Source of the DNA: Escherichia coli
GTDB taxonomy: Bacteria; Pseudomonadota; Gammaproteobacteria; Enterobacterales; Enterobacteriaceae
DNA: 64,000 nt
Assembly: GCF_001677475.2 (NCBI RefSeq)
Contig: NZ_CP015229.1
Strand: one strand, 5' to 3'
Under the pieces are notes generated by a model. It did no database searches and was not told where the DNA came from. It saw nothing but the letters and a program-made list of their open reading frames with translations. Of the stretch, positions 2,218-12,039 are shown in pieces (positions within the stretch are counted from its first letter, which is position 1; each line of letters opens with the position of its first letter). A program made the translations under genes and the position numbers.

Positions 2218-2474
2218 CAGCGCAGTACCTCCTGCACCAGTTTTTCAAACTTTCCAACTTTGGTTTCCAGCTCCGCCACACAATCCACCAGCTCATCCAC
2301 TGCTTTTTGTGCGCGATGTTTCGCCTGCATCAGTTCCCTGAGCGCTGGTACCATATCCCGACGAATGGCATCTTTTGTTACACCTGTTTTTTCCAGTTGT
2401 TCCGCCTGCCGCAACATTTCCTGTGCCTGTTTACGTAATTGCTCAGGGGTAAAAGTCATTGTCTGGTTGTTCAA
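2217..2474 (-). CDS. Hypothetical small helical phage protein (85 aa)
   Basis: ORF between the DnaB-like gene and Q-like gene on the same strand, with start/stop overlaps to both neighbours. Confidence 0.4.
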   Translation of the reverse strand: MNNQTMTFTPEQLRKQAQEMLRQAEQLEKTGVTKDAIRRDMVPALRELMQAKHRAQKAVDELVDCVAELETKVGKFEKLVQEVLR

Positions 2475-3862
2475 AAGAAACGCTCCATCTTACTGCTGTC
2501 AGTTCGTTTGTTACTGTACCTGCGCGGCTTGGACGGCTGCATTGGTGTGGAAAGAACCAGCGCACTTTCCTGGTCTACGGGCAGAAAATGTCCGTTATAA
2601 AAACGCCGGTAAATCGTTCCCAGAGAACCGTTACGTTGTTTCGTGATATTGATTTCCGCGATACCTCTGGCCTGCGTATCCGGGTTGTACACTTCATCCC
2701 TGTAAAGCATCAGAATGATGTCTGCATCAGCTTCTATTTCTCCGGAATTTTTCAGGTCTGAGTTCATAGGTCGTTTATTGGGTCTGGACTCAACTCCACG
2801 GGAAAGTTGGCTCAGCGCAATAACCGGTAATCCACCGGATTTTGCCAGGCCTTTAAGCCCTTTTGATATTTCCCCCACGGCAAGGTCATGACGGCCTGTG
2901 GATCGGGTTTTTATCAGCCCGAGATAATCAACCACCACCAGCGCCGTTTCCGGATGTTTAATCAGGTGGTGTTTCGTTGTTGCGCATATCTCGTCAATGG
3001 TCAGGTTCGCCTGGTCCACCATCCAGATATTGCGTCCGGTCATCAGCTCCACCCCCTTAATGAAACGCGCCCAGTCTTCGTCACCAAAGTGAGAGACAGA
3101 TTTCAGGCGTGATACCGGCATTCCTCCAGCCGCAGATACCATGCGTTCACCAATCTGGATGTTCGCCATTTCCATTGTGAACAGAAGAACACCATGCCCC
3201 TGCTCAGTCACCTTGTCGATGATATCCAGCGCCAGTTCTGTTTTCCCCATCGAAGGGCGAGCCGCGATGAATATCAGGTCGCCAGGCTCCATGCCGCCTG
3301 TTTTTGCGTCCAGTTCATCAATACCGGTCATCAACGTCCTGGATTTCTCCAGCCCCTTATTCCGGCATTCAACACGCTCAACCACCTCGGGAAGCACATC
3401 ATCAATATGTACCGGCTGAATAATGCCCTTTTCCGTCGACAATGAGGCCATCATGTTTTGCGCATCCTTCATGGCATCTTCAGCTGCTTCACAGGTATGC
3501 GCATCGCGTAATTTCTGCAATGCCTCATTCAGTATTTTTTCTGCATCACGCAGTGCAGCATTACGTCGCAGTGCTGCAACATAATGTTCCAGAGATGACT
3601 TCACCCAGGTTTTACGCCCGGAATCAGTAATCACCGGGGCAAGTTCCGGCATCTCATTACACAACAGCACAGGGTCAATCACGCCTGAAACACGGGCCTG
3701 TCGGCAGATGCCTGTGTAGATATCCCGATACGCTCGTACAGAAAAAACGTCTGCCGGCAATGTGGCCAGAATATCCATCACTTCATGATCAGCCCCGCGC
3801 AGAAAGAACGCACCAATGACAGCGCCTTCCAGGTCATCGTTACGCCAGACTGGAGTTGTCAT
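2471..3862 (-). CDS. Replicative DNA helicase, DnaB-like (phage-encoded)
   Basis: Walker A AARPSMGKTELAL, SQLSR motif and DnaB-like N-terminal domain; start taken at MTTPVWR, which overlaps the upstream stop (ATGA). Confidence 0.8.
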   Translation of the reverse strand: MTTPVWRNDDLEGAVIGAFFLRGADHEVMDILATLPADVFSVRAYRDIYTGICRQARVSGVIDPVLLCNEMPELAPVITDSGRKTWVKSSLEHYVAALRRNAALRDAEKILNEALQKLRDAHTCEAAEDAMKDAQNMMASLSTEKGIIQPVHIDDVLPEVVERVECRNKGLEKSRTLMTGIDELDAKTGGMEPGDLIFIAARPSMGKTELALDIIDKVTEQGHGVLLFTMEMANIQIGERMVSAAGGMPVSRLKSVSHFGDEDWARFIKGVELMTGRNIWMVDQANLTIDEICATTKHHLIKHPETALVVVDYLGLIKTRSTGRHDLAVGEISKGLKGLAKSGGLPVIALSQLSRGVESRPNKRPMNSDLKNSGEIEADADIILMLYRDEVYNPDTQARGIAEINITKQRNGSLGTIYRRFYNGHFLPVDQESALVLSTPMQPSKPRRYSNKRTDSSKMERFF

Positions 3863-4746
3863 GCTGCCACACCTCTGATACGAGAACGATAGCTGGGCCA
3901 GTTGAACGACAACCAGTTGCGCCCCCCGTCTGTGATCCTGTCGGCAATGCGGGGGCTGATAAACGCCCACAACTCTTCCGGTGAAAGGTTGCTGATCAGA
4001 ATGGTGGGCAGGATACTTTCGTACCGGGCATTGATAATTTCCTGCAAAATAGCCATTTCAGCCGCGCTGCCAAACTGAACACCAACTTCGTCGATGATCA
4101 GCAAATCCATTGACGCATAATGCTCAATAACTTCATCCGCTGTTTTTTCGCTATCATTCCGCCAGCAGTTTTTCACAGCACGGGTAAGGCGCATCACGTC
4201 GGTGATCTCCACGCTGGCCAGATGATTACGGATGATGTGTTTTGCCATTGATACCGCCAGATGATTTTTCCCGGTACCGCAACTGCCAGTCATAACAAGA
4301 CTGGTGCCGTTCTCCAGCATATCTGGCCAGTTCTCCGCATAGCGGCGACAGGCTGCAAGATTTCTGGCTGCGTCAGGATTAACCTCCAGATAGTTATCAA
4401 ACTCACAGTCCCGAAAACGCAGGGCAATTCCGGCGTTATCAGTCAGCTCTTCCGCCTTGAGGGACGACAGCTCCATGGTCAAATCGTTGGCCTCAGCGAT
4501 CAAGCAGTCAGGGCAGCATGAAATTTTTTCTCTGTCCTCGCCATTACGATCGCTCCACACCAGTATATGCGTACTGTATTTACCGTGTTTTTCGCAATAT
4601 CCACGACCATCACGCATCAGGCAGGAACGATAAGGCCATGGCTTTTCGCCCTTCTGAGCGAATGCAATCTCTGCCCGTAACTCATCCATTCGCGCCTGTA
4701 GTCTTTTTTGTTGTTCACGCAGGTTAAACGTCATCATCGCTGTCAC
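3859..4746 (-). CDS. DnaC/IstB-like AAA+ helicase loader with N-terminal Cys-rich region
   Basis: Walker A GSCGTGKNHLA and Walker B LLIIDEVG; N-terminal CEKHGKY...CCPDC cysteine cluster; sits between the O-like and DnaB-like genes. Confidence 0.75.
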   Translation of the reverse strand: MTAMMTFNLREQQKRLQARMDELRAEIAFAQKGEKPWPYRSCLMRDGRGYCEKHGKYSTHILVWSDRNGEDREKISCCPDCLIAEANDLTMELSSLKAEELTDNAGIALRFRDCEFDNYLEVNPDAARNLAACRRYAENWPDMLENGTSLVMTGSCGTGKNHLAVSMAKHIIRNHLASVEITDVMRLTRAVKNCWRNDSEKTADEVIEHYASMDLLIIDEVGVQFGSAAEMAILQEIINARYESILPTILISNLSPEELWAFISPRIADRITDGGRNWLSFNWPSYRSRIRGVAA

Positions 4747-4747
4747 C

Positions 4748-5662
4748 TCAGAATGTCAATTTGTCACTGGATTTACCGAATTTGTCAGACATGGCTCCCA
4801 GGCCAGACAGGACATCGACCTGTCGCTGTCGCCCACCTCCGGGAGCGGCTGGTTGTTGCCAGAAGTCTTCGAAGTGACGATCGGGGCCAAAGAACGTCGC
4901 TGCCTGCTTCACGAACTGTGTGCCGGTATTTCCTGTAGCACGTACCCAGGCGGCATAGCGTTTCACGCCATCAAGCATGGTTTCGGGTGTCACACCTTCC
5001 CTGATACGGGCTTTCCAGGCTTTGAAAGCAGCTGACTTGGAATTGCCACCAGCACGTTTGGGATATTCCTGCCAGGCCTGTTCAAATTCCGGTGAATATT
5101 CCTGTCGGGCAGAACGTGCTGGTGCAGACGCGTCAGCGGATGCACCAATAGTGTTTTTACTCTCTGTAGTATTCTCTGAAGTAATCTCTGTTGTATTCTC
5201 TGTAAGATCGAAATTGGTTTTCCCTTCTCCGCGGCGAGGGGTTTCCCGTGTCCGCGGTGAAGGCTTTCCCTCCTCCGCGAAATTGGGTTTTACAGTTTCC
5301 CGAAAACGGGTTTCCCCATTTCGGGAAAACTGATTGTTTTCATTGATAATTTCATTAAGGCGCTCACAATCTATACGGTAGAACATTTTGTGCTCAAGAC
5401 GCTTGTTGGTTTCAACCAAAATGCCTCTGGACACAAGATGCTTACGCGCTACAGCCTGTTGTTCAAATGTAAGTCCGGTTTCGTGTTGTATCTCTTCACG
5501 CGTTTTATGTACGCCTTCCGCTGCATGTGCTTTATCCTGCCAGTAAAAAATCTGACCAAAGAAAATAACAGCGTGCGGACTTCCCATGTATTTAACGAGC
5601 CCAGGGTAATAAGCAACCGGATGTCCAAAATCGAGCAGAAGATCAGACGGACGCATAGCCAC
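4748..5662 (-). CDS. Phage replication initiation protein (O-like replisome organiser)
   Basis: 304-aa ORF immediately upstream of the DnaC/DnaB-like pair; contains internal iteron-like direct repeats; start may be MAMRPS (5662) or MRPS (5656). Confidence 0.6.
   Translation of the reverse strand: MAMRPSDLLLDFGHPVAYYPGLVKYMGSPHAVIFFGQIFYWQDKAHAAEGVHKTREEIQHETGLTFEQQAVARKHLVSRGILVETNKRLEHKMFYRIDCERLNEIINENNQFSRNGETRFRETVKPNFAEEGKPSPRTRETPRRGEGKTNFDLTENTTEITSENTTESKNTIGASADASAPARSARQEYSPEFEQAWQEYPKRAGGNSKSAAFKAWKARIREGVTPETMLDGVKRYAAWVRATGNTGTQFVKQAATFFGPDRHFEDFWQQPAAPGGGRQRQVDVLSGLGAMSDKFGKSSDKLTF
5168..5205. repeat. Short direct repeats (ATTCTCTG-like, three copies) inside the O-like gene
   Basis: gtATTCTCTGaagtaATCTCTGttgtATTCTCTGtaag; encodes the repetitive TENTTEITSENTTES stretch. 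Confidence 0.45.
5214..5329. repeat. Iteron array (about five ~23-bp direct repeats); candidate phage replication origin inside the initiator gene
   Basis: Repeats GGTTTTCCCTTCTCCGCGGCGA / GGGGTTTCCCGTGTCCGCGGTGAA / GGCTTTCCCTCCTCCGCGAAATT / GGGTTTTACAGTTTCCCGAAAAC / GGGTTTCCCCATTTCGGGAAAAC; this mirrors the lambda ori-within-O arrangement. Confidence 0.5.
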
Positions 5663-5876
5663 CTCCCAGGCGTTTAAACATTTTTCCGGACTGAAACGCC
5701 ACCAGCGGATAACTCAGGGTATGAGTACGTCCCTGAACCTGGCAGACAACCTTCTGGCTTTCTGTATTGACCAGGCAAACCCGCAGAACGTGACCGTTGC
5801 TGGTGGTGAACCACTGCCCCACACGGGGGCAACGGTTGTATCGGTGATACAGGGAATTAACGACGCGGCGAATCAT
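5643..5876 (-). CDS. Hypothetical small protein (77 aa)
   Basis: ATG at 5874-5876 has a strong GGGAGG Shine-Dalgarno 7 nt upstream and overlaps the upstream stop (ATGA); lies just upstream of the O-like gene. Confidence 0.45.
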   Translation of the reverse strand: MIRRVVNSLYHRYNRCPRVGQWFTTSNGHVLRVCLVNTESQKVVCQVQGRTHTLSYPLVAFQSGKMFKRLGGGYASV

Positions 5877-6379
5877 GGGCGCGCCTCCCATTGATTACGG
5901 CGGAAAGCAGTGTGAGTCAGGCTGGTTTCGGCCTCATGGAATGCTTCAATGCAGCTCTCGTAGTACCGCATTGTGCGCAGACTTAACCCAAGCTGAAGCA
6001 TCATCAGACCATCAAGAGTTATGTAATAACCACGCAAAGAATCGCCATAAAGGTGATAAGTGCCGGGTATGAAATTACGGGTGAAAAACTCGCGCGAGCA
6101 GTTCAGATACTCGATTTTGTCGACGATATTCTGGTGCATGCGCTTGAAGTGGCAGGCAACATGCAGAGAGAAAATAACGGCCTTGCCGTTGACGGTCTCA
6201 ATTTTGAGGAATGGGTGAGTAGTGGTGGTAGTCATGGTGACAGCCCCGGTAGTCAGTTTGTTAGAAAACTCACCACCAAGGCTTTCCACGACCTTATAGG
6301 TGGTGAGACGTACAGGGGTGGAAATACCGGAGACTACCGAACCCGGCCCGACCGAAGTCGGCCCTGTACGCCCCACCAT
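5873..6379 (-). CDS. Hypothetical protein (start uncertain; C-terminal part of a long open frame)
   Basis: Frame is open from 7174 to 5873 but its upstream part overlaps the well-supported FinO-like gene; only the portion downstream of that gene is called. The stop overlaps the next ATG (ATGA); no convincing RBS was found at ATG 6379 or GTG 6472. Confidence 0.3.
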   Translation of the reverse strand: MVGRTGPTSVGPGSVVSGISTPVRLTTYKVVESLGGEFSNKLTTGAVTMTTTTTHPFLKIETVNGKAVIFSLHVACHFKRMHQNIVDKIEYLNCSREFFTRNFIPGTYHLYGDSLRGYYITLDGLMMLQLGLSLRTMRYYESCIEAFHEAETSLTHTAFRRNQWEARP

Positions 6380-6533
6380 AATTTGGGCGTAGCAATGCTC
6401 ATGACACGAAAAAACCGCATGAGCGCGGTTATGCTCAGTAATCAATTTCGGGTTTCCACGCCCGGCATCCACTTTACAAGATGCCTGAATAGTGTAACGT
6501 CCCGAAATTAAGGAATCAATGTTTTGATAAAAT

Positions 6534-6926
6534 TCAGCGATTAGACGCTTCTTTTCTACCCATATTAACTTTGAACAAGAGCTCCATACGACGAGTCCAG
6601 ATACCACGTTCTTTGAGTTGTGCTCTGGCTTCTTCGCGTTCAGATACGGATGTTCTGACAATACGATTTCCCGCCAGATTGCGGCGATATTCTCCAAACG
6701 CGACTGACTGAAGGTATGAATCTGAGCTTTTGTACTGATAGATGGCTCTTCGAAGGCTGTTTTTGTATTCCTTAGGTATATGTCCGAGATCGGCAAAGAG
6801 CTCATGAACGATATCGTGAACAAGCGGAACCACTTTGTATGGAATAACAAAGAAGCTTTCTGGATAGCGTTCAGCCAATACTTTAATGATTTCTTTATTT
6901 GCAAGATGCCTTGCTTTTCTTCCCAT
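6534..6926 (-). CDS. FinO/ProQ-domain RNA chaperone-like protein
   Basis: KEIIKVLAERYPESF...PL...SLRRAIYQYKSSDSYLQSVAFGEYRRNLAGN...EREEARAQLKE aligns by eye with the ProQ N-terminal FinO domain (KEVIAFLAERFPHCF...RSALRLYTSSWRYLYGV...RVDLDGN...EHARKQLEE). Confidence 0.7.
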   Translation of the reverse strand: MGRKARHLANKEIIKVLAERYPESFFVIPYKVVPLVHDIVHELFADLGHIPKEYKNSLRRAIYQYKSSDSYLQSVAFGEYRRNLAGNRIVRTSVSEREEARAQLKERGIWTRRMELLFKVNMGRKEASNR

Positions 6927-6989
6927 ATACCATTCTCCATTACTCTAGATATCAGAATGATATATCCAGGTTTTTCAAGCAGTTCAAGC

Positions 6990-7163
6990 TTATGCTGGTG
7001 CTTCACACTCAACAAAATCACGACGAAACAACCACAGCGGGCTGAAGCATTCATGCGGATAACCATCACGCAGGTAAATAACCCGCTGTGTTTCAGGCTC
7101 CCAGCGTATAACGTGGACACGACGCCCCCTTCCGTCACGGAACCAGCGATTGAGTACTTGCAT
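6990..7163 (-). CDS. Hypothetical small protein (weak call)
   Basis: Short ORF between the Lar-like and FinO-like genes; ATG at 7163 lies 8 nt after the Lar-like stop; RBS is weak. Confidence 0.2.
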   Translation of the reverse strand: MQVLNRWFRDGRGRRVHVIRWEPETQRVIYLRDGYPHECFSPLWLFRRDFVECEAPA

Positions 7164-7170
7164 TTGGATT

Positions 7171-7389
7171 TCATTCCACACCTACCCCTTCACGCTGATT
7201 CCAGTCATGAACAGCACGTTCTTTCGAATCAGGAATCTGGTTTGCGTTACAGCAAGTACATGCGACGTAATAACCATCATCGCCATCCAGAAAATATTTC
7301 ACCTCAATGAGTTGTACTTCCGGATTTCCGCAGAATGGGCAAGGTTTCAGCTCGACATCACCAGTTACACACGTCTTGATTTGCATCAT
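7171..7389 (-). CDS. Lar-family restriction alleviation protein (anti-restriction)
   Basis: ELKPCPFCG...GYYVACTCCNA...AVHDWNQR matches the Lar/restriction-alleviation zinc-ribbon signature (KPCPFCG ... C-x-x-C ... WN-R). Confidence 0.65.
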   Translation of the reverse strand: MMQIKTCVTGDVELKPCPFCGNPEVQLIEVKYFLDGDDGYYVACTCCNANQIPDSKERAVHDWNQREGVGVE

Positions 7390-8240
7390 TTGTTCTCCTG
7401 TAAAAGATTCGCAAGCTCAGTGTTATGGGTAAACAGCCCATCCCATGTTTTCTTCATCGGTAGTTCGCCGTTCAGATAATGGCGATATAACCAGGCAGCA
7501 CCTTTGGGCTTTAGTAACGGTTTAAAGGTGTCTCGCATTTCCCCATTTTCCTGCTCAACCCGGTTGTAGCGCTCCGTCAGATACTGATCACGTGCATACG
7601 CTTTTACACGCCAGCGTGGATACATAGCCTCCGGACGGTCGTCATACAGCCAGTTACGCTCTTCAAGGAACGCATTAATCTGACGAGTGTTTACACCGTT
7701 GAGTTGTTTGCAGAACTGCACAGGAGTGATGCCATCGGCGAGATGACTTTCGAGTTTGCTGATGTAGCGAGCCTGACGCTCTGCATACCCGAGAGCAAGG
7801 CGCTCGGATTTTTTGGCTTCAATCCACGCTTCAGCAGCAGCGATCGGATCGTCAAAGTCTGGAATAGTGTTTGAAGAAGGCGTTGCTTTACGAAAATACG
7901 CCTGCTCCATTTTTTCGAAGAACGACCAGGCCTCGTCTGTATCGACGATTTTTGACATGCGGGCAGCGCCGCGTTCTGTCCAGAGGACAAGTGATGTTGT
8001 ATGTTTATTAACCGACTCGCTAAAAGATAGTCGGAAAGATTTCAGCTCATCACTGCTGATTTTGAAAAAGTGTTTACCCTCAACGAAACGATCTTCATTT
8101 CGAATGTAGTTCTGTTGTATACGGATTGGCGTTGTTCCATATCCCGCCGCCAACGTTTCGGTGGTAACTACACGTACTCCCTGCCACTCAATAACTGGCA
8201 AGTTTTCAGGGTTGACTAATTTTTGTTTATTGATCATCAT
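7386..8240 (-). CDS. Phage antirepressor-like protein (ORF6N/KilA-N-type N-terminal domain)
   Basis: N-terminal IEWQGVRVVTTETLAAGYG...IRNEDRFVEGKHFFKI is characteristic of the ORF6N antirepressor domain; located immediately downstream of the Cro-like gene. Confidence 0.6.
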   Translation of the reverse strand: MMINKQKLVNPENLPVIEWQGVRVVTTETLAAGYGTTPIRIQQNYIRNEDRFVEGKHFFKISSDELKSFRLSFSESVNKHTTSLVLWTERGAARMSKIVDTDEAWSFFEKMEQAYFRKATPSSNTIPDFDDPIAAAEAWIEAKKSERLALGYAERQARYISKLESHLADGITPVQFCKQLNGVNTRQINAFLEERNWLYDDRPEAMYPRWRVKAYARDQYLTERYNRVEQENGEMRDTFKPLLKPKGAAWLYRHYLNGELPMKKTWDGLFTHNTELANLLQENK

Positions 8241-8316: not shown

Positions 8317-8583
8317 TCATCGCATGGACATTTCTGATGAATCACTCTGCCCATCTTCCGTGTGCGCTAAGCTTGGATGTGCTCCACGCTTGTTTTTGCG
8401 CGAGCGGTTCTTGTACAGGTTCAGATCGCACTTCAGAGCTCCATCAGTTAGTTTCTCAAGCTCCAGAGCACGCCCTTTAGGTACAATTGCTCCCCATCGA
8501 GTAACAGCCACTTGCGATACATCTAAAGCGCGCGCAACCTTTGCTTTAGTTCCAAAAAACGCAACTGCGTCTTGTGTTTTCAT
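8317..8583 (-). CDS. Cro/YdaS-like HTH DNA-binding protein
   Basis: 88 aa with N-terminal HTH (KAKVARALDVSQVAVTRW); divergent from the XRE repressor gene across a ~95-bp intergenic region. Confidence 0.55.
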   Translation of the reverse strand: MKTQDAVAFFGTKAKVARALDVSQVAVTRWGAIVPKGRALELEKLTDGALKCDLNLYKNRSRKNKRGAHPSLAHTEDGQSDSSEMSMR

Positions 8584-8678
8584 ACCACCTCCAAATAACT
8601 TATGTTTATCTTACTTCTATAACCATAGTTAGTTCAAGTTAACATATATTAATGATTCAACTAGTAGAGAGGATCCCC
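8584..8678. promoter_or_regulatory. Divergent promoter/operator region of the prophage immunity switch (predicted)
   Basis: AT-rich spacer between divergent HTH genes containing partially symmetric AGTTCAAGTTAAC / TTCAACTAGTA elements; operator sites not defined. Confidence 0.3.
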
Positions 8679-9065
8679 ATGGAAATAAGCGAACGCATTA
8701 CTATGAGACGCAAAGAGTTAGGACTTACCAAACTAGCCCTAGCCAAGACGCTAGGGCTGTCAGGTGTCAGCATATTGAAGTGGGAAAATGGGCAAAACGA
8801 GCCAAGCGGGAAAAACCTTTTCGCTCTCAGTGACGCTCTAAAATGCTCCCCGGCATGGTTGCTTTTTGGTGACGAAGATAAGTCTCCGACGCCAGTTGAT
8901 GAACTTCCAACAGAATTAGACGAGCAGCAAACTCAACTACTGAGTTTATTCAATCAACTACCAGACTCGGAAAAAACCATATTAATCAATGAGATATCAG
9001 CAAGAGTTGAGAACTTCAACAAACTATTTGAAGAATTACTAAGGGTCAGAAAACAACGCAAATAA
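8679..9065 (+). CDS. XRE-family HTH repressor (CI-like, short, no peptidase domain)
   Basis: MEISERITMRRKELGLTKLALAKTLGLSGVSILKWENG has an HTH_XRE signature; GAGAGGA RBS before ATG 8679; no S24/LexA-like autocleavage domain is visible. Confidence 0.6.
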   Translation: MEISERITMRRKELGLTKLALAKTLGLSGVSILKWENGQNEPSGKNLFALSDALKCSPAWLLFGDEDKSPTPVDELPTELDEQQTQLLSLFNQLPDSEKTILINEISARVENFNKLFEELLRVRKQRK

Positions 9066-9070
9066 TTATA

Positions 9071-9104
9071 AAACGGCAATCTATTCAGTAGGTTGCCGTT
9101 TTCT
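9071..9104 (+). terminator. Rho-independent terminator downstream of the repressor gene
   Basis: Hairpin CGGCAATCTATTCAGTAGGTTGCCG followed by TTTTC. Confidence 0.45.
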
Positions 9105-9209
9105 CACCCCCAAAAAACTAACTTTTATTAATTTTTACTTGCCCTAAAAGTTATCTTTAGTTATTGTTTGTGGCGTTTAGTTAATGCAACAAAAGTTATA
9201 GACGAAATT

Positions 9210-9668
9210 ATGAACACTCAAAATGGCGAACTTGACTTATTTGACATAGCAGACGAATCACAGATTTTGAACGATTTACTCTCAGTTATTGCATCCGTAA
9301 TCACACATGCAAGCAACGAAATAAACGAAATTGAATCGTGCATGAGCATTGCCTGGAGGATTAGCTCTTCAATTAATGAAAACTTACTTAAGCTCACCAG
9401 AACAGCACAAGCTAAATCAGCGCGTTCATGCAAACAAAATTTAGCTATTAATTCACAGAATCGTCTTCGCCACCAACGCGAAGCCTGCGGCTTAACAACC
9501 GCCGAACTCGCCAGGCTGCTCGATCTCGATGAAGAAATTATCATCCAGTGGGAGAGCGGAGAGTATGAACCAACTATCAGTATGCTTATCCCACTGGCAA
9601 ATGTTCTTGGTTGCGACCCGATATGGCTGTTAACTGGTAAACCAACAGGTGGGGATACTTGCGCATGA
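9210..9668 (+). CDS. Hypothetical protein with C-terminal XRE-type HTH domain
   Basis: C-terminal GLTTAELARLLDLDEEIIIQWESGEYEPTISMLIPLANVLGCDPIWLL is a typical HTH_XRE; the N-terminal ~90 aa are unassigned; start codon uncertain (track ORF begins at 9168). Confidence 0.5.
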   Translation: MNTQNGELDLFDIADESQILNDLLSVIASVITHASNEINEIESCMSIAWRISSSINENLLKLTRTAQAKSARSCKQNLAINSQNRLRHQREACGLTTAELARLLDLDEEIIIQWESGEYEPTISMLIPLANVLGCDPIWLLTGKPTGGDTCA

Positions 9669-9907
9669 AAAACTGTGATGCTTACCACATATGTCTCATT
9701 GGTGAATTGCTTGATTGCATACAAAAAAGCGCTGAGCGCAATAATAAAAATATAACATACGGTAATCTGGCAATAATTTCAGAGGATATTAAGAGCATCG
9801 CTCTTAAATTCAAGAGCGATGCGAACATTGACGACACTATTTACGCTTATCTTGCGAAAATAGTTGACGGATCCAAAAACCAGCCTCTGGATGAGGACCG
9901 TCAGTAA
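9665..9907 (+). CDS. Hypothetical small protein (80 aa)
   Basis: ATG overlaps the upstream stop (ATGA); its 3' end overlaps a convergent minus-strand ORF. Confidence 0.35.
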   Translation: MKNCDAYHICLIGELLDCIQKSAERNNKNITYGNLAIISEDIKSIALKFKSDANIDDTIYAYLAKIVDGSKNQPLDEDRQ

Positions 9908-10064
9908 AAAATTCATTTGATGAACATGAGAAGTGCTTCATAAAATTTACTTTATCTTCAGGTGAAACCACCTGACGAATTAATGCAGAGATAGCGACTT
10001 TGTGCCACATTAATTCTTTTTTGAGCGCTGAAATTTCTTTTTCAAGTTGCTCTTCGTTAATCAT
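9837..10064 (-). CDS. Hypothetical small coiled-coil protein (75 aa)
   Basis: ATG at 10062-10064 is preceded by a GGAGGA Shine-Dalgarno; the protein (MINEEQLEKEISALKKEL...) is predicted helical; it overlaps the 3' end of the plus-strand ORF 9665..9907. Confidence 0.4.
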   Translation of the reverse strand: MINEEQLEKEISALKKELMWHKVAISALIRQVVSPEDKVNFMKHFSCSSNEFFTDGPHPEAGFWIRQLFSQDKRK

Positions 10065-10244
10065 TTTATCCTCCATTGAGAGCTGAATTGTAAATGGAGA
10101 CCAACACGCGGCTACGTGTGGTCGTGCGCCGGACACGGATAAGCATCCGGTAACTAATTATCAATCATTGAGGAAACAGTCTCAATATGAAAACACTTCT
10201 GAGACTCGCTATATAGCAGAACATATAAGTCAGCTGAGGAAGCC

Positions 10245-10610
10245 ATGAAAAAGTTCGAAAACATAACTGTTCTCCATGTTGATGACTTTGATTATACAAA
10301 CCCGGAACTTCTCCCGGAGGTTGTAAAGGCAATAGATGTTGCCGATATAGTGATTAGAGGAAAGAGAATTGTCAAAAACAGGCTCGCATGCACTTCAGGA
10401 GCAATGACAGAAACAACCTCACAACAAGATGATTATGAAGGCATTTGTCTGGAGCCTGACTCATTTGCGGTAAATGTTTATCATTTATTGCATGCAACAC
10501 AGGTATTACATATGTCAAGTAATCACGAAACAAAAACACTTGGCAGCGAAATTCTGAATTTTGCATGTGAATATGCAAAAGCTGCTGCCGAAAAAGAATT
10601 AGCGCAATAA
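10245..10610 (+). CDS. Hypothetical protein (121 aa)
   Basis: ORF with GAGGAA RBS upstream of the ATG; no recognised motifs. Confidence 0.45.
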   Translation: MKKFENITVLHVDDFDYTNPELLPEVVKAIDVADIVIRGKRIVKNRLACTSGAMTETTSQQDDYEGICLEPDSFAVNVYHLLHATQVLHMSSNHETKTLGSEILNFACEYAKAAAEKELAQ

Positions 10611-10806
10611 CAATAAATATTCCCTGAATGTTTATTACGGTTTTATCGCCGGGGATTGTTGCAACCTTTATTCGCAGGAGATTATGTTATGACTTTCCTG
10701 AAACATAAGGCATCGTATAAAACTGCCTGCCTCATTGCACAACATGGAGATTCTTATCTTCATATAGCCAACCTGTATTTGCGCAAAGCATATGGGAGAT
10801 AAGTCA

Positions 10807-10995
10807 ATGGAAGAAAAACAACTGAACATAACACATGAAAAAGTAAGAGTGTTGCTAACTATTGAAAATGGAAAAGTAATTTACTCAAAACATCTGCTGG
10901 ATAATGAATTCGTTGGCTGCATGGATACATTTCTGTGGATGGCAAAAAGAGCAGGCTACACGATTATTCCACCAGCAAAGGAGCAAACATTATGA
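10807..10995 (+). CDS. Hypothetical small protein (62 aa)
   Basis: Internal ATG with GGGAG RBS; its stop overlaps the next ATG (ATGA). Confidence 0.35.
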   Translation: MEEKQLNITHEKVRVLLTIENGKVIYSKHLLDNEFVGCMDTFLWMAKRAGYTIIPPAKEQTL

Positions 10996-11573
10996 ATCAT
11001 TCAGAGTTCCAACCAGAAGTTACGCCACATGGCATAAAAATTGGCAATACAACCATTGATTATGTTGAGGCCGTACAGCGACTTAATGATGGTGAGTACG
11101 ACAATCCATACTGGCACGGTTTAAGAATCATGCAATGTATTGCGGAAGCCGATGATGCCGGATTCCTGGGAAGATTTTCAGTCGATCTGAAGGTTGCTCA
11201 GTGGCGCTGGCTGTATGTAGCGAAATTTATCAGTGAAGAGGAAGACAAGAACGGCACCATTGATATCCCTAACGATAACGGAACTACAGATCGCGCAGTT
11301 ATTTATAAGGGGAAGCATGGTTGCATGAGTATATACCCAGGGCCACTTCGCATTGCCCTGCAAAACCATGTCGAATGGGGATTCATTGAAAAATATGGCG
11401 AAGCTGAAGGCATGGGGCGAGTTCTGTTTCTCTATCAAAAAATGCTCATCGCAGATCCTGATAATGGCTTCATTGTCTCTGCTATGGGACGAGAAGGGCT
11501 TGAACTTCTTCTGGATGAAATGATTCACGATCTGAATACTCATGGTATGCCAGAAACACCAGTGGCACATTAA
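10992..11573 (+). CDS. Hypothetical protein (193 aa)
   Basis: ATG overlaps the upstream stop; no recognised motifs. Confidence 0.5.
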   Translation: MNHSEFQPEVTPHGIKIGNTTIDYVEAVQRLNDGEYDNPYWHGLRIMQCIAEADDAGFLGRFSVDLKVAQWRWLYVAKFISEEEDKNGTIDIPNDNGTTDRAVIYKGKHGCMSIYPGPLRIALQNHVEWGFIEKYGEAEGMGRVLFLYQKMLIADPDNGFIVSAMGREGLELLLDEMIHDLNTHGMPETPVAH

Positions 11574-11575
11574 AT

Positions 11576-11854
11576 ATGTCAAATCAGAATAAAATTAATG
11601 TATTTCAGGTTGAGTCAAAACATAAAACACCTGTGATAAAACACGTTCGCCGCCATACACGCATCTATACGCCAGAAGAGTTTATGGCAATGCCAATGAT
11701 AAAGAAACTCATACGAGACAATCCCGGTCTCGTTGCTATAGATAAAAACAGTGGAGAAATAATGTTATCACGTGAGATTGCCGAAATTTACTGTAGCGTG
11801 AATAACAGTAAAAAGTTGAAAAAGGCAATCAGAAAGATATCAGGAGGAGCATGA
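11576..11854 (+). CDS. Hypothetical basic protein (92 aa)
   Basis: ORF immediately after the previous stop; its own stop overlaps the next ATG. Confidence 0.45.
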   Translation: MSNQNKINVFQVESKHKTPVIKHVRRHTRIYTPEEFMAMPMIKKLIRDNPGLVAIDKNSGEIMLSREIAEIYCSVNNSKKLKKAIRKISGGA

Positions 11855-12039
11855 ATATTTATTTCAGAATAGTCATATCACTGGCAATTATCGCATGCAT
11901 TTACGGATTACTCGTCCCGTTTCTGATATCAATGAAGGATACGGTAGCGGTAATTTCTGGCTTTGCACTGACGTTTCTGACCCCGCCATGCATTTATGCC
12001 ATTTATAAGGGGCTTTCTTTCACTAAGGATAAAAGATGA
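11851..12039 (+). CDS. Small hydrophobic membrane protein (62 aa)
   Basis: Two hydrophobic stretches (IVISLAIIACIYGLLVPFLI and VAVISGFALTFLTPPCIYAIY); translationally coupled on both sides (ATGA overlaps). Confidence 0.45.
   Translation: MNIYFRIVISLAIIACIYGLLVPFLISMKDTVAVISGFALTFLTPPCIYAIYKGLSFTKDKR

Follow-up and report, generated by a model that had tools for sequence, protein, structure and literature searches.

Positions 5145-5329 of the window, the 64,000-nucleotide stretch of Escherichia coli contig NZ_CP015229.1 (assembly GCF_001677475.2) that was analysed here, are in all likelihood the replication origin of a lambdoid prophage, lying inside the prophage's own initiator gene and belonging to a replicon of the O-like/DnaC-like/DnaB-like type. 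The assignment is made because the repeats lie in the disordered interdomain linker of a winged-helix initiator, because the 40 bp of duplex with the lowest stability in the gene come directly downstream of the iteron array, and because the iterons co-vary with the N-terminal domain, the layout matches that of lambda and P22, and the operon context agrees. Together with the out-of-frame period of the repeats, these features uphold the lambda-type arrangement put forward in the original prediction, a model-made reading of the same DNA. An origin inside an initiator gene is the classical arrangement, to which the origin in the window adds a further case. In the proposed course of events, derepression would lead to transcription from the cro-side promoter, which would produce the initiator and probably also activate the origin, as in lambda (PMC5043065). 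The N-terminal winged helix would then bind five 23-bp iterons and a half site and distort the DNA, the four adjoining ACAGAGAWTACW 12-mers would melt while the initiator probably captures one strand, and the C-terminal domain would recruit the DnaC-like loader and the DnaB-like helicase encoded directly downstream. We infer these steps (initiator-iteron binding, 12-mer melting, single-strand capture, and helicase recruitment) as well as activity of the origin in this host.

The 23-bp iteron array was recovered where the original prediction had placed it, both by Tandem Repeats Finder (5219-5279, 2.7 copies, score 80) and by a repeat search (clean 23-mers beginning at 5216, 5239, and 5262, with weaker copies at 5281-5300 and 5304-5323), and the list of open reading frames (ORFs) with its translation puts the repeats within the O-like coding sequence, as had been claimed. 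Brought into register, the iterons are five units of exactly 23 bp (u1-u5; plus-strand starts at 5216, 5239, 5262, 5285, and 5308), of which u3-u5 are clean and read nTTTCGCGGAnnnGGGAAAnCC on the gene strand, i.e., are TTTCGCGGAnnnGGGAAAnCC-like. Self-identity at a lag of 23 is 0.66 versus 0.11-0.45 at neighbouring lags, and this signal is the strongest periodicity in the 64 kb (all 115-bp windows, lags 10-40; binomial p ~1e-16); the periodicity scan detected no other iteron-like array in the window. All matches to a 17-mer iteron pattern with at most two mismatches (4/4) fall within 5217-5325, and the matches to the iteron and 12-mer patterns exceed those in dinucleotide shuffles and are clustered at this locus. 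Since 23 is not a multiple of three and the GGGAAA core of the iterons is translated in three frames (G-E-T, E-G-K, R-E-T, and G-K-T), the 23-bp repeats are to be read as DNA-level features.

A half unit joins the iterons to a second array, where the original prediction had seen three ATTCTCTG-like repeats; such repeats are present beside the iterons, but their number is four. Tandem Repeats Finder reports a 12-bp array at 5161-5204 (3.7 copies, score 67). The plus-strand starts of the 12-mers are 5158, 5170, 5182, and 5194, their consensus is ACAGAGAWTACW, lag-12 identity is 0.78, and the two strands of one unit read ACAGAGATTACT (top) and AGTAATCTCTGT (bottom). With at most two mismatches allowed, TATTCTCTGTAG matches the window 10 times (3.0 expected), including four contiguous matches at this array. 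The G+C content is 0.32 at 5150-5199, and no 40-mer of the gene is less stable than the 12-mer block (-45.8 kcal/mol versus a mean of -56, sd 3.9), which adjoins u3-u5, the most stable segment of the gene. The tail AAAAACACTATTGG follows the 12-mers in several otherwise different initiator types. By analogy with known origins, the 12-mer array is proposed to be a DNA-unwinding or single-strand capture element.

The initiator falls in a cluster of 406 members that NCBI names 'DNA-binding protein', while phage records label it 'replication protein O' or 'primosomal protein I'. Its PHROG matches are 270 ('replication initiation protein', 1.6e-66) and 9773 ('replication initiation O-like', 1.5e-36); searches against Pfam (E <= 0.01) and NCBIfam returned no family, and a sequence search of the PDB returned no match. 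By these comparisons the initiator would work like O, yet it is not filed as a member of Phage_rep_O, and only the broad PHROG 'O-like' families match it. An AlphaFold2 model built on 33 homologues gives the N-terminal domain a helix-turn-helix with a beta-hairpin wing (helices at residues 53-60 and 64-76, hairpin at 80-85/90-95; predicted local distance difference test (pLDDT) scores of 77-90 over residues 20-100) and leaves residues 109-184 disordered (pLDDT ~30). Foldseek searches against the PDB retrieve winged-helix DNA binders only, including MarR/ArsR types, the ORC2 winged helix, and the staphylococcal plasmid Rep-DNA complexes 5kbj/4pt7. The N-terminal domain is presumed to bind the iterons, and the C-terminal domain is presumed, by analogy with the C-terminal domain of lambda O, to contact the helicase loader or the helicase. 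The iterons and 12-mers encode residues 110-167 of the disordered linker, the iterons and half unit (5204-5329) accounting for residues 110-151.

A segment that encodes a disordered linker could also acquire repeats as a by-product of a low-complexity peptide, through replication slippage that such a segment tolerates, with no function at the DNA level. The length of the 12-mers is divisible by three, such that they encode a TENT/TEIT peptide repeat, and relatives have between 2 and 5 of them, the kind of variation expected of slippage; the 23-bp period, however, is out of frame and its core is read in three frames. Further evidence comes from a codon-degenerate scan of viral contigs and of bacterial and archaeal genomes, which accepted any codons for T-E-[N/I]-T occurring twice. 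In viral contigs (G+C content 0.27-0.60; 95 unique contexts) the first Thr is ACA in 182/190 cases and the Glu is GAG in 184/190, the few exceptions being unrelated repeats, and the 12-mers of initiators are written ACA GAG AWT ACW. Bacterial and archaeal genomes gave 119 unique matches, 30 in the ACAGAG form and 89 in other codons, and repeats with a period of 21-24 bp stand directly upstream of 24/30 of the former versus 0/89 of the latter (Fisher p = 7e-20). Slippage accounts neither for codons fixed to this degree nor for the use of other codons, without the upstream periodicity, where unrelated genes encode the same peptide. It is likewise at odds with two viral contigs (L151 and L167) whose 12-mers, placed after 23-bp iterons, are in another frame (QRLQ) or have 11-nt spacing. 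In L151 (1-212) a TGA shortly upstream interrupts the T-E-I-T frame, and in such cases the initiator gene may have been split or frameshifted while the DNA element was kept.

An orphan, non-coding copy of the repeats also speaks against slippage. Plasmids of the pBSG3 family of Bacillus carry a 180-bp segment that matches the initiator gene of phage PM1 in its iterons and 12-mers only (78% identity), that contains frame-breaking indels, and that lacks an initiator ORF. In Bacillus amyloliquefaciens pBSG3 (L330, NC_014104.1) it occupies 716-888 and comprises three CCTACAGGGAAAGA iterons and three ACAGAGATTACT units, and at least eight records of 8.4-kb Bacillus plasmids hold the orphan copy. 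Since this copy is orphaned and frame-broken, the iteron plus 12-mer segment behaves as a cis-acting DNA element, and the view that the repeats are merely an outcome of peptide slippage is hardly credible. On the plasmids themselves, the orphan copy could be a device for hitch-hiking on phage replication or a decoy.

The 12-mers are conserved at codon level far beyond the close relatives of the prophage (comparison loci L004, L005, L087-L206, and L209-L326). Among 306 units from 99 contexts, chosen at >=9/12 matches, the base counts along the unit are A294 C305 A306 G292 A305 G289 A306 W278 T299 A300 C262 W301. The hosts include Gammaproteobacteria (Escherichia, Klebsiella, Serratia, Providencia, Xenorhabdus, Pantoea, Acinetobacter, Photobacterium, and Marinomonas) and Firmicutes (Bacillus, Sporosarcina, Planococcus, Staphylococcus, Lachnospiraceae, and Selenomonadaceae), and possibly also Nitrospirae and Cyanobacteria, to judge from metagenome-assembled genomes. 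In the 130 bp that precede the 12-mers, 75 of 89 unique viral contexts have a best period of 23 bp and 82 have one of 22-24 bp, and the upstream repeat sequences are of a dozen or more types. The number of 12-mer copies per viral context is 3 in 57, 4 in 17, 2 in 13, and 5 in 2; the array lies in the middle of an ORF in 86/90 contexts (median 161 codons upstream and 150 downstream), and a YW dipeptide precedes it by 115-123 residues in 100/107 unique N-termini (24 clusters).

It is quite possible, though short of probable, that the ACAGAGAWTACW array (2-5 copies, usually 3) is a previously undescribed and nearly invariant cis-element of a very large family of phage origins. Invariance across phyla calls for a conserved reader, and the array would therefore imply one, most simply a face of the initiator that captures one melted strand. 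Within this family the iteron sequence, the N-terminal subtype, the C-terminal domain, and the helicase or loader partner all vary; the sole protein part common to all of the initiators is the winged-helix scaffold with the YW motif. Strand capture by such a face, about as likely as not, would be the phage counterpart of the DnaA-trio or of the 13-mers in the DNA-unwinding element (DUE) of plasmids RK2 and F. No description of the ACAGAGAWTACW element was found in open-access literature text, where a search by sequence strings (ACAGAGATTACT, TEITTE, and others) returned noise only. Several other roles for the 12-mers were considered and set aside, since none explains conservation at all 12 positions: DnaA-trio-like triplets, Hfq ARN motifs, an internal promoter, and primase start sites (CTG on the bottom strand, CTA/TTA on the top strand).

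Sequence-specific unwinding elements next to iterons have precedents in RK2 oriV and F ori2, where iterons bound by a winged-helix Rep protein adjoin three to four tandem sequence-specific 12/13-mers in a layout like that of the window, and where Rep captures one strand of the DUE 13-mers (PMC10797057, PMC4081077). Unlike the window, the RK2 and F origins are intergenic, contain DnaA boxes, and are bound by monomeric Rep with WH1-WH2 domains. The likeness is one of layout, for which homology is not claimed, and by analogy the window might share the strand capture. A scan for DnaA boxes (TTWTNCACA) gave no match between 4178 and 28130, and 2 in the window versus 6.4 expected. If the ACAGAGAWTACW array is functional, it makes the opening and holding of unwinding elements by iteron-type initiators testable in many systems. 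The comparison brings out a general rule for the large cross-phylum family of phage origins, in which variable iterons at a 23-bp phase are followed by an invariant ACAGAGAWTACW array, and, if the array is such a shared cis-element, ACAGAGAWTACW would be a one-line sequence signature for locating such origins in any genome.

The CHARACTERISED origins with which the window was compared are those of lambda and P22, and the order of parts is the same, iterons being followed by an A-rich repeat. In lambda, the iterons are bound by O dimers and the 40-bp A+T-rich region beside them is opened, with O and P making contact with the separated strands (PMC5043065, PMC7466680). As in the window, the lambda origin lies in the initiator gene between an N-terminal DNA-binding part and a C-terminal recruitment part; transcriptionally downstream of four to five iterons 20-24 bp apart lies an A-rich tract of low stability (PMC7466680, PMC5043065); and the initiator gene stands in the cro-side early operon. 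The annotated lambda iterons, located in the middle of O and followed by an AT-rich tract, are spaced at 20, 24, and 23 bp. The lambda sequences AAAGACACTATT and TCAGAGAATTCT are in the same frame as AAAAACACTATT and TCAGAGAATACT of the window, and AAAGACACTATT stands at the start of the lambda AT-rich tract in a frame matching the window tail, which is a lead and not proof of homology. The differences from lambda are that the iteron sequence in the window is unrelated and has much weaker dyad symmetry, that a regular 4 x 12-bp array replaces the A-rich tract, and that a DnaC-like loader and the phage's own DnaB-like helicase are encoded, whereas lambda P hijacks host DnaB. P22 resembles the window in having an annotated rep_origin within its initiator gene 18, with CGGTAAAAC iterons at ~22-23 bp followed by a tandem A-rich 12/13-mer (ACAAAAGACAATA, present twice) that differs in sequence from the window 12-mers, and in encoding a DnaB-like helicase (gene 12) downstream; unlike the window initiator, gp18 of P22 is of the lambda-O (TYGY/TYGW) type, and a DnaC-like gene is absent. 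Origins inside genes are also regularly proposed by analogy in other phages, e.g., Francisella phage KIRK (PMC7924643).

Comparison of relatives indicates that the parts of this region are inherited as modules. The initiator gene is 97% identical to genes of ~20 Stx1a/Stx2a prophages and of phage ASU11. In phage phiP27, L17 matches the C-terminal half alone (94% DNA identity, window 4748-5152) and has another N-terminus and other repeats, while phage mEp460 combines another N-terminus, six other 23-bp iterons, and a lambda-O-like C-terminus with the same 12-mers, to which its match is restricted (97.5% over 40 bp, window 5165-5208). Homologues of the N-terminus that are 47-72% identical (loci L029, L030, L079, and L085, and Klebsiella phage Kp4882-1) carry five related iterons of ~23 bp with an altered consensus, e.g., GGGGAAAGTCCATTCCG, and C-termini of at least three kinds; the junction ATTTCGAT(C/T)(C/T)T is also found in all five. 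Each N-terminus is paired with its own iterons in phiP27, mEp460, Kp4882-1, PM1, and AB2, and at least 12 iteron types occur in viral contigs. Read together, these comparisons mean that the iterons are inherited with the initiator N-terminal domain and that C-termini are exchanged independently. The absence of the repeats from related initiators, which would have counted against the original prediction, was not encountered, as every relative inspected has repeats.

Variable sites among 19 close variants amount to 2-6% across the N-terminal domain, iterons, and 12-mers, which behave as a single conserved block, and to 22-50% in the mosaic C-terminus; this places a recombination joint directly after the origin. 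The extra conservation of the origin segment (99% versus 97% identity) is caused by the mosaic C-terminus and was not used as evidence of selection. The joint suggests another explanation of the 12-mer block, namely that it is not an unwinding element but a conserved recombination site at which modules of N-terminus and iterons are swapped against C-terminal helicase-recruitment modules. Homology with phiP27 does end just past the block (at 5152), the mEp460 match is confined to it, and the diversity of close variants jumps from 6% to 22-50% variable sites immediately after it. Selection for evolvability, however, cannot fix wobble positions (A 306/306, G 289/306, and T 299/306) across phages of Proteobacteria and Firmicutes, and the block, which has the lowest stability in the gene, sits where lambda and P22 have their AT-rich unwinding region, all of which makes a purely recombinational role distinctly unlikely. 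Action as a joint may be a consequence of the conservation of the 12-mers and not its cause.

Iterons that bind the initiator do not by themselves have to mark an origin, and they might instead bind it, or another regulator, for autoregulation, incompatibility, or exclusion, the true origin being elsewhere in the prophage. Plasmid iterons serve in copy control as well (general knowledge; PMC5043065), the orphan copy on pBSG3 could act as a decoy, and the window covers only the early region of the prophage, such that another origin to the left is conceivable. Iterons and a low-stability repeat in an initiator gene upstream of loader and helicase genes, however, are the architecture of the lambda and P22 origins, and the window offers no second iteron-like array, its sole comparable signal being a peptide-linker repeat in ypjA. 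An exclusively regulatory array is accordingly quite improbable, and the preferred reading of the segment as an origin may include a dual role in initiation and regulation.

Several observations weigh against a lambda-type origin at this locus. Kinship with lambda O was not detected, as Pfam PF04492 (Phage_rep_O) was not matched and the best BLASTP hit (E 0.04) concerns an irrelevant stretch, and the Foldseek E-values are weak (~0.1; prob 0.8-0.99) and support the fold class only. Units u1-u2, which contain inverted repeats of 15-18 nt at 78-87%, are degenerate, and the dyad symmetry of u3-u5 is weak, limited to a CCGCGG centre and a partial TTTCSC...GGGAAA. The iterons also have more variable sites (6.3%) than the N-terminal domain (2.2%) among the 19 close variants. 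Opposite the 12-mers, the array is bordered by an AT-rich patch (5318-5358) that is only slightly more stable than they are; unstable patches thus flank the array on both sides, and the melting side is therefore taken from lambda and P22 only. Additionally, no integrase, excisionase, or tRNA/tmRNA was found between the CI-like gene (8652) and the chromosomal junction, the prophage appears truncated at the end within the window and, on that evidence, may be defective, and searches of the open-access literature returned no experiments on binding, unwinding, or autonomous replication for this type of replicon.

Replicons of Shiga-toxin (Stx) phages are among the closest known systems. In phiP27, an Stx2e phage, L17-L18-L19 resemble the window in the C-terminal initiator domain and in the DnaC-like loader and replicative helicase that follow, whereas the N-terminus is of the HTH_36 type, the repeats are CAGAATCTGAAGGGTCA at 15/32 bp, and the ACAGAG 12-mers are absent. 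According to Kozlowska et al. (2020), the O gene of 'P27' is lambda-like and contains six iterons (PMC7466680), contrary to the phiP27 record (L002, NC_003356.1, 2501-3427), which shows the helix-turn-helix-type L17, other repeats, and then the DnaC-like and DnaB-like genes; either the name covers two different phages or isolates are not alike in their replication regions. Another counterpart is the Eru7 reference phage Stx2_14040 (LC567818.1), whose initiator is 96.5% identical over 91% of its length, and the likeness extends to the Ash/Rha gene upstream of the initiator. Compared by these two genes, the replicon in the window is, by sequence, of the Eru7 type of Shiga-toxin phages. The Eru typing scheme of Fagerlund et al. 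(2022, PMC8951638) is based on the genes adjoining cI; the same study describes the replication proteins of Eru phages as entirely unknown and Eru7 as the most widespread type in Europe. It names no initiator, and neither it nor the other Eru paper mentions an origin or iterons. Unlike the Eru7 Stx phages, the prophage has no stx in view and is truncated at one end. A concrete candidate origin and initiator can thus be assigned to the Eru7-type replicon, and, as the replication of Stx phages drives toxin gene dosage, the iterons and the initiator N-terminal domain become testable targets. A replicon regarded as 'non-lambdoid' would then follow the logic of lambda, yet with a winged-helix initiator and a helicase system of the DnaC/DnaB type.

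The features of the origin and its surroundings are collected in Table 1. The genes follow the order cI/cro, antirepressor, Lar, Ash/Rha, initiator, DnaC-like, DnaB-like, and Q antiterminator, such that the initiator gene sits where lambda has O in its early rightward operon. The same order of initiator, DnaC-like, and DnaB-like genes on one strand is found in phiP27, Stx2_EH2201, and a Stx2e prophage. The DnaB-like protein probably starts within its ORF, close to where the DnaC-like gene stops.

Table 1. Coordinates of the origin, the initiator, and neighbouring prophage genes in the window.
Feature	Position	Strand	Evidence or remark
Replication initiator gene, 302 aa from ATG at 5656 (ORF opens at GTG 5662)	4748..5656	-	ORF list and translation
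N-terminal winged-helix domain (aa 10-108), presumed iteron-binding	5333..5629	-	AlphaFold2
Iteron array, five 23-bp units in exact phase	5215..5329	-	repeat searches and sequence
Iteron u1	5329-5307	-	TTTTCCCGAAATGGGGAAACCCG
Iteron u2	5306-5284	-	TTTTCGGGAAACTGTAAAACCCA
Iteron u3	5283-5261	-	ATTTCGCGGAGGAGGGAAAGCCT
Iteron u4	5260-5238	-	TCACCGCGGACACGGGAAACCCC
Iteron u5	5237-5215	-	TCGCCGCGGAGAAGGGAAAACCA
Half unit ATTTCGATCTT, left half of a sixth iteron, joining array to 12-mers	5204..5214	-	sequence
Four 12-mers, ACAGAGAATACA / ACAGAGATTACT / TCAGAGAATACT / ACAGAGAGTAAA	5156..5203	-	encode TENT-TEIT-SENT-TESK
Conserved tail AAAAACACTATTGG (also written AACACTATTGG), directly after the 12-mers	5145..5158	-	recurs in relatives
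C-terminal helical domain (aa 185-272, motif EYSPEFEQAWQEYPKR)	4841..5104	-	pLDDT 83-96
DnaC-like AAA+ helicase-loader gene	3859..4746	-	Pfam IstB_IS21 2.1e-15, Bac_DnaA 1e-6
DnaB-like replicative helicase gene, mechanical ORF	2471..3970	-	Pfam DnaB_C 5.7e-73, DnaB N-terminal domain 2.4e-5
Ash + Rha domain protein, upstream of initiator	5873-7174		Pfam
ORF6N/ANT antirepressor in cro operon	7386-8240		
cro-like gene heading the early operon that runs through the origin	8317..8583	-	P22_Cro 9e-19, HTH_3 1.9e-14
CI-like repressor gene, divergent, 137 aa	8652-9065	+	HTH_3 only, without S24 peptidase domain
Second helix-turn-helix protein, adjoining CI-like repressor	9168-9668		

The original prediction had further held the replication module to be intact, which stands with respect to the three replication ORFs, all full length compared with their homologues (the DnaC-like one with that of Stx2_EH2201), and is qualified by the lack of int and xis at the prophage end within the window. 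A related Stx2e prophage runs 5.5 kb further, to xis and int, while the early-left arm of the present prophage is only ~3 kb long (window 8652-12000 and 11577-12001). Beyond ~12 kb the window is Escherichia chromosome (ypjA, ygaQ, and gabDTP; 96.5% identity to E. coli). It is plausible that the prophage, if derepressed, could replicate only in place, in keeping with the in situ replication suggested in the original prediction. Because the CI-like repressor lacks an S24 domain and an ORF6N/ANT antirepressor is encoded in the cro operon, induction would probably proceed by the antirepressor rather than by RecA-stimulated self-cleavage. No stx genes occur within the part of the prophage covered by the window. 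A scan for promoters and terminators found sites no commoner than in shuffles, its single 'terminator' being the inverted repeat of u1, and a reading of the region as an RNA element was dropped, as Rfam on 4600-5800 gave only a chance snoRNA match (E 0.39). The second strongest periodicity of the window is a 12/24-bp repeat, GGATCCGGTTTTGGGTCTGGTTTC, at 16273-16400 in the chromosomal autotransporter gene ypjA/ehaD, which is unrelated to the origin and probably encodes a Pro/Asp/Lys-rich linker on the minus strand.

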